Below the pieces are notes generated by a model. That model saw only the letters and a program-made list of their open reading frames with translations. It had not been told where the DNA came from and did no database searches. Below, in pieces: positions 11,028-42,226 of a stretch of DNA of 45,440 nucleotides. Both the position numbers and the translations under genes were made by a program. Numbering within the stretch: position 1 is the first letter of the stretch; every line of letters begins with the position of its first letter. Source of the DNA: Octopus sinensis (lineage: Eukaryota); contig NW_021834884.1 of assembly GCF_006345805.1 (NCBI RefSeq), positions 1-45,440 of the forward strand. The letters are read 5' to 3'.

Positions 11028-11240
11028 GTTAATCCAAACAAGAAAACAAAACACAAAAAAACACAACAACGCGAGGACGTGGAACAAATATAGTATTATT
11101 GGACGCTCAGGAAAGAAAGAAGGAAAGAAGGAGGGTTTAACGTTTCGAGCGGAGCTCTTCGTCGGAAACATAGGAGAAGGAAAGATCCCGAGAAGGGAAG
11201 ACAGAGGAAAAAAATCGCCAACGGTACACACGAGGTCACA
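11028..11240 (-). mobile_element. ~210-bp non-coding HHR-bearing element inserted in (TA)n
   Basis: Flanked by TA repeats on both sides. A highly similar copy lies at 33210-33401. Contains the HHR at 11135-11169. Confidence 0.8.
11135..11169 (-). ncRNA. Minimal type I hammerhead ribozyme (U4C variant)
   Basis: GUUU CCGACGA A GAGC UCC GCUC GAAA CG UU AAAC. Stem I GUUU/AAAC, stem II GAGC/GCUC, palindromic ACGU stem III. Confidence 0.7.
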
Positions 11241-11324
11241 ATATATATATATATATAATATAATAAATAAATATATGCATATATACATATATCTACATAC
11301 CTACAAATATATGGATATATACAT

Positions 11325-11480
11325 GCATATATGGGTACAGGACATAGAAAAAAAAACGTTGAACACAATGAGAAACGAAAACATAAAAACAAAAACATAG
11401 AAACGAACATTTTTTGAACAACGAAAAAAAACCATAGAAGCGATACATACAACATAAAGAATATCCCCCTTCTTCAGTTG
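11325..11480 (-). repeat. Fragment of a dispersed repeat family, related to 18530-18775, 32565-32945 and 34016-34082; possibly Penelope-derived
   Basis: Shares ATATGGGTACAGGAC and CCC..(T/A)TCAGTTG blocks with the other copies and is adjacent to a TA tract. The Penelope origin is inference. Confidence 0.45.
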
Positions 11481-11985
11481 TATATATATATATATATATA
11501 TTTACATATATATGTTATATATTTATATACATTTGTGTATGCATCGGTATAAATGTGTATATATATATGATGATGGACTCGCCCGTGGAAGACAACTTAT
11601 AAGCGTTCAGTGTAACTTTATTTTTTCTGCCGAACGATTTGATTAAAGCGATCAAGCGTTCGTGCCGCACATCAGCTCAGTCCTTCTATCAAATCCACGT
11701 GACGTGTATCGAAGTGATTGCAGAGCAACGTGAGGTAAGTCTTTTGCTCAAGAATACAACTCACCACGCGGTCTAGGAACTGAAGCCACAATCTCGATTG
11801 GTCTAGTGGTATTATCTATGTACATATATATAAATATAAAAATTATATACATATATATATACATATATATATATGTATATATATAATATAGAAAAAGGAG
11901 AGGAACGCTCGAGATGTTAATCCATTTATATCATGAAGTCCTCTGCACAATACAAACATATATCTATCTATCTATCTATCTATTC

Positions 11986-12020
<35 letters not shown>

Positions 12021-12063
12021 GTCTATCTGCCTATGTATCTATCTATCTATCTATCTATCTATA

Positions 12064-12132
<69 letters not shown>

Positions 12133-13461
12133 CAAAACTATAGGTGTTTTCTTTTTTGTCTTTTTATAGTTTGGTTGTCGTTGTTAAGCTCCATAGAATT
12201 CACAGCAAGCAGGCCTATGCTTCAAAGACAATCTTATTGCGATCAACCGGAATTTTAAGATAGCGTCGGTCGCGCCGGTTGCGGCGGTATTGTTGGTGGT
12301 GCTTAAGCTTAGGCATCCGTGCCTATAATATCTAATACAACCTTCTTGACTTAAAGACGAGAAAGGTGTTATTTCAAAGAAATATGGCAGCTAATTCCAG
12401 TAAACGGTACGACGGCCATCTTAAGTGTGACTCATTGGTGAATTTTTTTTTTGTTTTGAAAGGTGGGGCGGCTAGATGTTGCAATATATATAGAGAGTTA
12501 TAACAGATTAATGCAGAGAATTGGTGCACAGGTGTGCAACGACTGCATGCAACGATCTAGATGGCTGTGAAAATATGTTGTGTGGAAATGTAAATCAATA
12601 AATACTGATATAATATAAAAATACAGGTGTGTAGAGATGAGGTCATCATCGTGAATGCTTGTCTTAAGCAGTGGGAGCGTGTGTGTGCGCGCGTATGTGT
12701 GGTGGTGTGTATATGTATGTGTGTGTGCGTGTGTGTGTGTGTGTGAACGTGTGTGTATGTGAATGTGTGTAGATGTGTATATGCGCCTGTATGAGCGCGT
12801 ATGCGGCGTGCGCGTGCATGCGTTTGCGTTTATATGTAAACATCCGCGTCCATGTATGTATGTATGTATGTATGCATGTATGCATGTATATTTGGTATGT
12901 GTGTATGCATGTATGTATATATGCATAAATATATATATGTATATATGTATTTATATGTAATATATAAATATGTGTTGTACTTTGTGTTTATGTTTATGTG
13001 AAAAAATCTGTATATATATAAGTGTGTATGTATGTATATATATAATATATATATATAATATTATATATATATATGCGCACACACATACCATACATATGTG
13101 TATATACATGAACATATATCTACACATATACATATATAAATGTGCACATATATACACATATATATGTGTATATATATATCTATATATCTAGATATATATA
13201 TATGTGTATATATAATATATATATATGTGTACATTGTCTGTGTATGCGTTTGCGTGTGTGTGTTTGTGCGTTTTAGTATGTGTATGAATCTGCGGCTTGT
13301 GGCTTGAGTAATGTAATATAATATGATGCAACATTATACATTAACGCGTGCACTTACGGTTGTACATACAGAAATGTGGGAATGCAAGAGTATGTGCCAC
13401 TTCAGGGTATGTAACAGTGTCCTCTTATGTGTCGGTGTGTGTGTATATATATACTACTACA

Positions 13462-39068: not shown

Positions 39069-39704
39069 AACTTGGACTTCTTTGGAGCCAGTGAGAAGGT
39101 GTGTTTCCAGTGCATGGATTATCTCTTTGTCTCTGGTTCAAAGTGATGAATCCAACTCGCATCCTGGTTTGGGAAACGATGAAAGAAATCAGCTGGTTCT
39201 GCCTCAAACAATGTCAGATTTTCTCGTGATGTGATCAGCATGCTAAGTTCATTGTGTAGAATATTCCCAACTCTCCCGCGAGATATCCTAATCGCACTAG
39301 TTATTGGATTTATAGCTAATCGCCTGTCATTCATCATCATGTGGTGAACACGATCAATAGTTTCCTCGGTGGTGGCCATCTTTAAAGCACTCCCTTCTCC
39401 TCCTAAATTCTGTTGCCCAGTTTTGTATTATAAATAAAACTGGAGCATCATGCTCTAATGGAACGACCATGTCAGCATGAATGTCCTTGGGGGCTAAATC
39501 CTTTTCTCGCATGATGCTAAATTTTGTCCATTTTAAAGAAAAGTCAGTACTAGTTACTTTTTAAATCTCATTTGAACAATCCGATGTTAGTTTACCCGAA
39601 AACAAAAATGCATTTGTCAATTAGAAGAGGCGAAATGGGTGTATAAAAGATTTCAAACTCTAGCATAACTTCTTCATATAGCCAGCCTCTGAACTTTTCA
39701 GCCT
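39069..39704 (-). mobile_element. 5' fragment of a second mariner family
   Basis: ORF 39119..39379 reads TTEETIDRVHHMMMNDRR..ISRGRV..ILHNEL..QDASWIHHFEPETKR. A TIR-like GGCTGAAAAGTTC lies near 39690-39703. Confidence 0.85.
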
Positions 39705-39857
39705 GAAGCTGCGAGGATAATCTGGTGCTTGACTGAGGAAAGAAAACTTCGAATGACCCGTCCTTGTTTTCGTTGTATCGTCTACCTGGATATTTTGTTG
39801 TACCTTTTTGTACGACCTAGCTGTCCGGATGTTTTGCGTTCTTGTCCCATTTTGTAT

Positions 39858-39887
<30 letters not shown>

Positions 39888-39889
<2 letters not shown>

Positions 39890-41157
39890 GGGGTTCAACA
39901 AAATAATGGAAACACCTAGCATCATAGCATCATAATTTTGAAATATCTATGAAACCGTCAAAAACTTGTTTATTTTTATGTTTCTTTTTAATTATTATTA
40001 GTGTTGCTTAATATGTTTCGCTAAAATTGCTGTTTCCTTTCAGATATCATCAGAAAAGATAATTAAAATTCATTAAAATGACAGATCTATAGGACTTTCA
40101 AAGAGGTCAAATTCTTGGTGCTCGTATGGCAGGTGCTAGCGTAACGAAAACAGCCGAAATGTTTAGTGTATCAAGAAGTACTGTCTCGAAAGTAATGACG
40201 GCCTTTGAGAAAGAGGGGAAAACCTCCTCATCGAAAAAAACCCCGAAAGAAAACCAAAACTTTCAGGTAGGGACCGTGTGACTCTTAAGCAAATTGTTAG
40301 AAAGGATGACAAAAGTACAGCTCCCAAAATTACTGCAGAGCTTAATGACCACTTCGAGAACCCAGTTTCCACAAAAACTGTTCACCGAAAGCTGCACAAA
40401 GCCGGATTTCATGGGAGGGCTGCAATCAGAAAACTACTATTTTCAAAAACAAACGTTGAAAAGCGTTTAGAGTGGAATAATAACCTACAAAATTGGTTCC
40501 TAGAGCAGTGGAAGAATGTTATTTTCTCGGACGAGTAATCCTTTACGTTATTTCCGAACACTGGCCGTGTATACGGTGTGGAGACAGCCAAAAGAAGCTT
40601 TTGACCCAGACTGCCTTCTTTCAACTGTTAAACATTCAGGAGGATCTGCGCTGATCTGGGTGAGGAGGGGCTATATCTTGGAAATCCGTCGACCCAATGG
40701 TTTCCCTTTATGGCAGAATTATAGTGAAGATTATTTAAGTATTTTATCTGATCAAATGGTTGCGGAACTGTTTCCGGAGGGAAATGCAATCTCCCAGAAT
40801 GATATTGCACCAATTCACACAGGATGATAATGCACCGATTCACACAAGATTATTCTAGTGAAGTTGAACGTCTTATCTGGCCACCACAGTCTCCAGATCT
40901 CAATAGTATTGAACATTTATGGTGCATTTTAGAAGAACAAGTAAGGAGTTGATATCCTCCACCATCATCACTACAAGAACTGGGGACTGTTTTAGCTGAA
41001 GAATGGACAAAAAATCATTTGGAAACAATTCAAATTTTGTACGAGTCCTTAGCTCATAGAATTCAAGCTGTAATTACTACCTAAGGCGGTCCTAACCCAT
41101 ATTAAAATAAATTTGTTTGAAATTTTAAGTTGTTTCCATTATTTTGTCCAACCCATG
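39888..41157 (+). mobile_element. Full-length decayed Tc1 (DD34E) element
   Basis: TIRs CAGGGGTTCAACAAAATAATGGAAACA and TGTTTCCATTATTTTGTCCAACCCATG|TA. Motifs VIFSDE, QDDNAPIH and WPPQSPDLNSIEHLW are present with stops and frameshifts. Confidence 0.93.
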
Positions 41158-41906
41158 TATATATTTATAAATTAAGGATATGATCATTAAAATGATTATA
41201 TCATTGGCTAGCGTATTAAAAGTGACCGTGAAGCTAAAATTAATTGTAATTAAGGGTTCCGGAATGCCAGCGCCTATACGGTAAAAGTAGATGTCAAATA
41301 CATGCATCCACTCTAAATTAGTTCTCTATTTATAACTCTAGATCGGATGCGAGGTAATGGGCTAGAAGATTTACGAAATTTATGGTAATTCTATATCTTA
41401 AGATTTCGAGTGATTCTGAACTATTTTAAACATTTGCCAAATCAAATTGCCTGCTGGTGGTTGAACGGCTACGAAATTGCTTTTGTTCTTAACGTAACAT
41501 ATAAGCAATAACAACACTCATGGTTTCTGCAGCAAAACGAAAGTAAAAATTTTGATGCGTGAAATAAGAACAAGCTATTTTGTGTAATCGGTGGCAGAAT
41601 CGTGCAATAAATGACAGATAAATGTTGCAACAGCTGTCAAATCGTAGGAAGTGATCCTTTTGCCTTCTATTTCAAGCCGAACCTATGAATGACTTATATA
41701 TAATTTATACCGATAAATTTTAAACGTTCTTGTCGTATGTAATCTTTAAACATATGTATATATACGTATATATATATATATTATATATATATATATATAT
41801 AAATATATTATATATATATATATATAATATATATATATATATAATATATATATATATAATATATTATATATATATATATACATATATATATACATAATAT
41901 ATAAAT

Positions 41907-42226
41907 ATTAGGGAATAAATCCAAAATTACAGGGAACAAATCAGATTTAGGATTAAACCAATTTTTAGTAAATATTATATAATATTAATTCGAGACAAAA
42001 CCACTATTTTGCAAATCAAATAAGGAAAGACTTAATCATACAAAAACATTTAAATATCAAGTTTTAAAACTGAATAGAAGATCGGACATCCACCTGACGA
42101 ATGTCATTTGAAGACATGAAACAATTGTAGTGGCGATTTATTTACTTTATATTAAAATTTTTTATGTATTGATTAAGTCTTTCCTTATTTGATTTGCAAA
42201 ATAGTGGTTTTGTCTCGAATTAATAT
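41907..42226 (+). mobile_element. Inverted-arm element with a central HHR, in (TA)n
   Basis: Arms 41982-42046 and 42161-42226 are near-perfect reverse complements, preceded by a ~75-bp unpaired leader. TA tracts on both flanks. Confidence 0.82.
42090..42133 (+). ncRNA. Canonical minimal type I hammerhead ribozyme
   Basis: CCAC CUGACGA AUGUC AUUUGAA GACAU GAAA CAAUUG UA GUGG. Perfect stems I and II, complete core, palindromic CAAUUG stem III, GUA triplet. Confidence 0.88.

Follow-up and report, generated by a model that had tools for sequence, protein, structure and literature searches.

Hammerhead ribozyme folds in an Octopus sinensis contig as probable ends of Penelope-like elements and of tandem units copied in trans

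Introduction

Hammerhead ribozymes of Penelope-like elements (PLEs), their truncated single copies, the targeting of (TA)n and the hammerhead-bearing retrozymes have been published (PMC4209133, PMC8557442, PMC7229834, PMC3088659, as far as the available text of each goes), and the available parts of PMC6765202, PMC6962438, PMC8967140 and PMC6155905 cover the same ground; a PLE origin of retrozymes has also been proposed (available text of PMC7229834 and of the preprint 10.64898/2026.07.22.740005). Here we analyze the hammerhead folds of contig NW_021834884.1 from Octopus sinensis (assembly GCF_006345805.1, 2.72 Gb); this whole contig, 45,440 nucleotides (45.4 kb) long and rich in microsatellites, is the window of this study. 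An earlier note on its sequence had named seven type I folds and four partial ones, and had read them as non-autonomous mini-elements placed by a TA-targeting PLE.

Published counts, taken from the available text of each source, include 126,247 hammerheads in axolotl, more than 6,000 in coral and ~5,000 in mussel (PMC7229834), 9,000 in Xenopus (PMC4209133) and 235 Rfam hits in giant squid (PMC6962438). The available part of a report on the O. vulgaris genome classifies 6.83% of it as Penelope-like, in 190 families, and holds no mention of hammerheads or ribozymes (PMC13282606); the supplement of PMC8557442, in the part available, contains an octopus Hydra element, Hydra-1_Obim, with a (TA)n preference and a hammerhead row. 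Our literature search, which left Repbase, Dfam and preprint supplements outside its scope, found no paper on an octopus hammerhead repertoire. Lunse et al. are said to have found ~150,000 PLE-linked hammerhead variants in 2016.

Results

Hammerheads of the window

The elements and folds are as follows (strand after the coordinates; basis in brackets where recorded).

11027..11240, minus: family A copy 1, putative Neptune/Nematis-type PLE (5'-truncated 3' end), (TA)n on both sides (sequence)
11135-11169, minus: family A copy 1 hammerhead, C4 core, helix III ACGU, GUU site (descriptor)
17985..18497, plus: family B, a non-LTR retrozyme with ~1.3 units of a non-coding tandem repeat (396 bp)
18255-18322, plus: family B hammerhead, helix III palindrome one base short relative to the family (descriptor)
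21779..22031, both strands: family C fold-back insertion
21809-21856, minus: family C intact hammerhead, C4 core (descriptor)
~21887-22031, plus: family C inverted, decayed partner with a ~65-nt tail
22213..22415, plus: family I 3' end, cut inside helix II; the family core is the U3-A8 covariant
30199..30396, plus: family G, 3' end of a putative Neptune/Nematis-type PLE, sister of A
~30272-30306, plus: family G decayed hammerhead; the family core has U at position 6
30401..30880, plus: family D, older non-coding tandem-unit element, retrozyme-like
30401-30510: family D inverted arm
~30572-30646, plus: family D hammerhead, first helix I pair broken in the window copy
31492..32165, minus: family E, a non-LTR retrozyme with ~1.15 units of a non-coding tandem repeat (562 bp) and a short inverted stub
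31775-31836, minus: family E hammerhead (descriptor)
33207..33401, minus: family A copy 2, with the fixed family 3' end at 33207 (sequence)
33303-33337, minus: family A copy 2 hammerhead, C4 core, GUC site (descriptor)
41908..42226, plus: family F fold-back, that is, a putative Hydra-like PLE 3' end, an inverted arm and a ~60-nt tail
42090-42133, plus: family F hammerhead (descriptor)

Our descriptor calls for the core CYGANGA, helix II of at least 3 bp, GAAA, helix III of at least 1 bp, a UH site and helix I of at least 4 bp; the control, a comparison that the earlier note had proposed, is a set of 60 block-wise dinucleotide shuffles of the window. Six of the seven named folds are recovered at the positions and on the strands first assigned to them; the shuffles give a mean of 0.08 and a maximum of 1, so that none of the 60 reaches 6. 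The tolerance for C at core position 4 was adopted after the sequences had been read; with the strict core CUGANGA the window holds three folds (shuffle mean 0.05), and an earlier, stricter script recovered only one or two. Three of the six folds have C in place of U at position 4 (C4), which had passed unflagged. The seventh, 30574(+), fails the descriptor because its first helix I pair is broken in the window copy; it is a decayed copy of family D, whose form is intact at this fold (GGTCA..ACCTAGGTC TGACC). No Rfam match in the window attains the gathering score, and an Rfam search by E-value has no hammerhead among 150 of its 389 matches, most of which are microsatellite-like microRNA matches.

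Every named motif belongs to a genome-wide repeat family (39-40 of 747-2,354 candidates scored per family). Helix III is palindromic or near-palindromic in all seven families, in keeping with the tiny or palindromic stem III noted before; the family forms are ACGU (A, G), ACUGCAGU (B), ACUCUGAGU (C), ACCUAGGU (D), ACAGACUGU (E) and ACAAUUGU (F). By eye, 28 of the first 50 matches listed in a generic genome scan have a helix III that is perfectly palindromic, against an expectation of about a quarter. The core is canonical in the family forms of B, D, E and F, has C4 in A and C and U at position 6 (U6) in G, and is U3-A8 in I. The helices are wholly different between families, and the changes within families resemble neutral decay. 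The folds are type I hammerheads, that is, the core and three helices are present and helix I is the open one, and they are real.

Three of the four partial folds are also accounted for: ~21895 is the inverted partner of 21810, 30274 is a decayed copy of family G, and ~22221 is a hammerhead of family I, with its U3-A8 family core, cut off inside helix II. The fourth, ~32436, found no support; no second copy with the motif is present among the loci compared.

Families A, G and F are ends of coding PLEs

The copies at 11135, 33303, 30274 and 42090 are 5'-truncated 3' ends of protein-coding PLEs, so the idea that all are non-autonomous mini-elements fails for A (two copies), G and F. Longer genome copies have a GIY-YIG endonuclease (EN), a 3' untranslated region (UTR) of 0.8-2.4 kb, the same hammerhead and then (TA)n. 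For family A, a pattern ~1.9 kb upstream of the end occurs at 22 places in the genome, seven of which were fetched; three of these seven have a frame with CxxxxCxxC and GIY-YIG upstream, and the A hammerhead and 3' end (88-90% identical to the window) downstream of a CA-rich, 2.4-kb UTR. One linked copy reaches reverse transcriptase (RT) motifs, and the linked protein matches an intact PLE protein (BLASTP E-value 3e-14). Most family A copies are short (median of a few hundred nt); upstream of six long family A loci, only CA-rich sequence was met, and scanning the first 176 loci for motifs of PLE proteins gave nothing convincing. A short frame in locus L032 that resembles the end of the endonuclease was set aside, as it adjoins the truncation.

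For family G, loci L207+L225 have the order RT, EN, 773 nt, hammerhead and (TA)n (77% identical to the window over ~190 nt), and locus L086 has the same PLE link. Identity between the A and G endonucleases is 59-71%. At the outer helix I pair, the sole compensatory one seen, there is covariation, with G-C in A and C-G in G (22 vs 4 copies). A and G are sisters, contrary to the first impression that the families have no flanking similarity. Both have the CX2-5CxxC linker and CCHH motif that are also Nematis features (PMC8557442, available text); these motifs, rather than an RT tree, point to a Neptune/Nematis-type clade.

For family F, two of the three wide-spaced pairs fetched have a Hydra-like EN piece in the orientation of the hammerhead; one such piece lies 2,070 nt upstream across a TG-rich UTR, with a partial tandem after it and ends 90% identical to the window. 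EN only, and no RT, was recovered here; by eye it resembles the Hydra alignment in the available supplement of PMC8557442, so the Hydra-like assignment is a motif call and not one from an RT tree. The plan of an EN-containing PLE, that is, RT together with a C-terminal GIY-YIG domain upstream of the hammerhead end, is thus present as RT and EN in broken copies of A and G and as EN in F; the few long copies read contain no intact open reading frame (ORF) for any of the three. The 5' ends of A, G and F differ between copies.

Three side observations concern these families. A GAGCG segment lies 20-30 nt past the hammerhead in A (33275-33285(-)) and G (30321-30330(+)); by prediction, it could base-pair with helix II at its 3' arm, in competition with the active fold. 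The PLE 3' UTRs at loci L231, L256 and L194 (2-2.4 kb) consist largely of CA/CATA or TG/TATG cryptic repeats common to the loci; because such UTRs are shared between loci, part of the simple-repeat content of the genome would be copied by retrotransposition. Window positions 33500-34010 hold a fold-back relative of family F with no recognizable hammerhead.

Families B, D and E are non-coding tandem units

The copies at 18255 (B), 31778 (E) and 30574 (D) are non-coding tandem units, that is, non-LTR retrozymes (LTR, long terminal repeat). The 396-bp B arrays and 562-bp E arrays are young, with units 93-99% identical and a GC content of 35%; their longest stop-free frames are 76 aa (B) and 81 aa (E), and up to nine consecutive units at 396 bp (B) and four at 560-562 bp (E) were seen. 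Of 18 non-edge B 3' ends, 16 fall at monomer phase 239-241, and the 5' ends all differ; both orientations are present in 10 of 25 E loci. Runs of at least two consecutive intact units are present for B and E; for D a tandem junction is seen and, since its upstream sequence is its own 3' end, we regard D as an older tandem unit. The tandem architecture is observed, and we infer that the PLE machinery copies these units in trans. Hydra-like EN sequences beside E (L074) and B (L121) were considered as coding parents and rejected; they are separate insertions in the other orientation. Relative to its family, the B copy at 18255-18322 lacks several single bases; these deletions may have arisen in the assembly of so small a contig.

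Families C, H and K

Family C has 2,290 exact cores in the genome, and nearly all of its copies start within ~10-45 nt of helix I; no coding partner was identified for it, and it is possibly a self-standing mini-element. Families H and K (window 18536-18780(-), 32555-32740(-), 34014-34080 and 11333-11480(-)) are TA-flanked repeats with a common fixed end; they have a hammerhead-like GAAA whose site is non-cleavable or missing, and a conserved CUGAWGA-AGGG ~25 nt later. A by-eye reading of H and K as type II hammerheads was rejected, as they have no helix I; they are possibly PLE ends with a decayed hammerhead.

Insertion anatomy and proposed mechanism

In every family the 3' end is fixed, 40-290 nt beyond the cleavage site, and the 5' ends vary. 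With the family 3' end defined from the window copy, it abuts (TA)3 in 43 of 44 copies of A, 59 of 67 of F and 16 of 23 of G, compared with 7-8% of background positions; for B and E the counts are 17 of 31 and 7 of 27, the next array unit being the commonest other context. The TA borders reported for the window are thereby borne out, with the exception of one end of the 21810 element, which adjoins (TG)n. The earlier proposal that a TA-targeting PLE machinery places dimer-type hammerheads is also supported.

The C and F insertions are fold-backs in which an inverted copy with a ~60-nt tail is joined to a forward copy; the fold-back centers differ from copy to copy, so each inversion was made anew. 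Inverted partner, tail and partial tandem are seen for F; for A and G the fixed 3' and variable 5' ends are seen. The same arrangements are described for PLEs in the available text of PMC8557442, and the same features in that of PMC4209133 (PLEs) and PMC7229834 (retrozymes). For B, C, D, E and F, the swapped dimer fold is better than two monomers by 11-17 kcal/mol.

In the mechanism that we propose, a PLE protein (RT and GIY-YIG endonuclease) would nick (TA)n, and reverse transcription would be primed where the element RNA has a fixed site resembling TA; the sequence within the element at which the families end is itself TA-like, a hint that annealing to the nicked target provides the primer. 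Reverse transcription would usually stop early, so that nearly all copies longer than ~130 nt keep the hammerhead and lose the ORF, and a second priming or a template switch would often add the inverted partner with its 60-95 nt tail. As this end is downstream of the cleavage site, only uncleaved, multimeric or circular RNA could be the template; a palindromic helix III should make cleavage depend on a pair of hammerheads, such as tandem arrays or partial-tandem PLE transcripts offer. Judging from published work on other animals, dimer cleavage would release a unit-length RNA able to circularize. The isolated window copies are most likely inert passengers.

Intact PLEs elsewhere in the genome

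A genome search for GIY-YIG (150 scored of 5,029 candidates) gave nine matches among the 150 that lie in stop-free frames of 762-883 aa with RVT_1 and GIY-YIG domains; two matches resemble a host SLX1-type gene. Two intact PLE families that we read have their own hammerheads at the 3' end and stop at (TA)n, and one of them has a U3-A8 core; intact helper PLEs are therefore present. As parents of the window families these two were rejected. In one intact family (L209, L213), a 479-aa overlapping frame lies upstream of the 781-aa RT-EN frame.

Abundance and core variants

Exact cores number 28,074 for A and G together, 2,290 for C and 1,090 for F genome-wide, with 0 for each reversed pattern; one generic sub-pattern gives 5,214 against 1,296 reversed. 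The genome total is at least ~35,000 hammerhead cores. A strict descriptor finds five folds in the 45 kb of the window; the outer flanks hold six over 202 kb and the surroundings of PLE genes 13 over 180 kb, and shuffled sequence has 0-1. The window is thus ~3-4 times denser than the flanks; the flank rate implies perhaps ~80,000 cores (~30,000-175,000, from six events in flanks that are a non-random sample). The very large repertoire that had been predicted is real, and extrapolation from the density of the window overstates it ~3-4 fold.

In a search for the A and G cores, about 51 of the 100 matches listed are by eye G-type, and all of these have U6, with any of the four bases at position 7; this suggests that the U6 core is fixed in a family of ~14,000 copies.

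Other repeats in the window

Positions 8064-8290, inside an inverted repeat at ~7850-8490, form a long hairpin with telomere-like TTAGGG blocks in its arms and resemble a miniature inverted-repeat transposable element. An abundant repeat like a short interspersed nuclear element (SINE), with tandem and nested copies, is at 9937-10700, 21002-21400 and 36494-36690; we take it to be an octopus SINE. Two regions, 34200-35200 and 39880-41160, are by eye presumably decayed Tc1/mariner-like transposases. Related reverse transcriptase fragments of a long interspersed nuclear element, 70% identical, are at 138-1088 and 26051-27018, and a minisatellite (13-bp unit, 42 copies) is at 38327-38874.

Discussion

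We read the hammerheads of the window as PLE-derived ends: A, G and F as stubs of coding lineages, and B, E and D as protein-free units copied in trans (probability ~0.9). Several points weigh against this. For A, G and F, every coding copy found is frameshifted or truncated, and Pfam is silent on the A-linked and F-linked EN pieces; family C has no coding sequence upstream in nine of nine copies (genome order); the two intact PLE families that we read share no 3' sequence with any window family, so the helper of B, D, E and C is a postulate; and the 4-bp dimer fold of A and G is not favored over two monomers. The model is read from sequence, and cleavage, transcripts and circles are its predictions.

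The most serious alternative, which we nonetheless think doubtful, is that the folds have ceased to cleave. They would then be retained either through drift or because the PLE 3' end uses them as a signal for protein binding or priming, and the success of families with altered cores would be explained. Altered cores are indeed widespread (C4 in A and C, U6 in G), the H and K hammerhead looks decayed in every copy seen, and the available texts report that Naiad PLEs without canonical hammerheads still proliferate (PMC8557442) and that PLE hammerheads are weak cleavers in vitro (PMC4209133). However, although position 7 is free to vary, at least nine families retain the remaining core bases, the UH site and the palindromic helix III; A and G show covariation at the outer helix I pair, and the B, D, E and F cores are canonical. 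According to the available text of PMC3088659, U3-A8 is a compensatory change that is active, U4C is active enough in a viroid and A6C has low activity; our literature search for an A6U hammerhead found no hammerhead paper.

It is improbable that all of the folds are self-standing, non-autonomous ribozyme mini-elements of fixed short length, as first proposed. The proposal is true in essence for B, D, E and possibly C, in which copies start ~10-45 nt from helix I, and the short length of most family A copies is in its favor; for A, G and F it is refuted by their continuity with endonuclease-coding sequence, and their variable 5' ends are contrary to a fixed length. Chance matches in AT-rich, low-complexity DNA, to which a loose one-mismatch core (8 matches, shuffle mean 3.8) might point, have a negligible probability, since the tighter descriptor is never equaled in 60 shuffles and the exact family cores, without a single reversed match, refute them.

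If PLE-derived ends are the right reading, the high-copy C4 and U6 families are a natural test of whether PLE hammerheads must cleave: should the U6 family cleave as a dimer, it would be a natural core variant for which we found no description; should it not, PLE 3' hammerheads can work without catalysis. Only tentatively do we suggest that the genome holds ~100,000 PLE hammerheads, among the densest reported, in lineages with fixed C4, U6 and U3-A8 cores that spread CA/TG repeats and fold-backs. If so, elements that spread the CA/TG cryptic repeat and thousands of fold-back hairpins may feed the simple-repeat load and double-stranded RNA.

Comparison with described systems

The phenomenon is known, and the known picture is unchanged; the novelty lies chiefly in the families and in how abundant they are. 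The coding-linked ends are in substance pseudo-LTR (pLTR) fragments of PLEs, which the earlier note had said would lessen their novelty. The window adds several PLE and retrozyme families, and at least ~35,000 cores in a genome where Rfam finds none in the window. It also gives direct sequence evidence that the PLE machinery inserts tandem retrozymes, a point for which published arguments have mostly relied on co-occurrence and trees.

The comparisons that follow hold for the available text of each source. The closest match is the minimal dimer-type hammerhead of EN-containing PLEs (Cervera & de la Pena 2014, PMC4209133), which likewise is type I, has a tiny or palindromic helix III and an unpaired base 9.1, occurs in many divergent families per genome, mostly as single truncated copies, includes a U3-A8 variant and forms opposite-strand pairs 100-700 bp apart. 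Unlike the elements in that text, ours are from an octopus-type genome and include whole families with C4 or U6 cores, and they number at least 35,000 compared with 2,000-9,000 for fluke, coelacanth and frog.

The Neptune/Nematis and Hydra clades (Craig et al. 2021, PMC8557442) likewise have a C-terminal GIY-YIG domain, a Cys linker, a (TA)n preference, an inverted 5'-truncated partner, a one-sided tail and a hammerhead near the 3' end. The hammerhead sequences described here differ from the Hydra-1_Obim row, the tails are 60-95 nt instead of 30-40, and, unlike those elements, A and F have 3' UTRs of 2.1-2.4 kb in which the cryptic repeat is rich in CA or TG.

Metazoan non-LTR retrozymes (Cervera & de la Pena 2020, PMC7229834) are likewise non-coding tandem units of a few hundred bp with a GC content below 45%; in that paper and in the preprint of Li, Clavereau & Pollet (2026, 10.64898/2026.07.22.740005) they have one type I hammerhead per unit and co-occur with PLEs, as here. 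Families B and E differ in that their marks of PLE insertion are direct (a fixed 3' phase at TA, an inverted partner and a tail) and in that their helix III is of the dimer type, not the canonical invertebrate form of the published retrozymes; the E unit, at 562 bp, is also longer than the 170-400 nt RNAs of PMC7229834.

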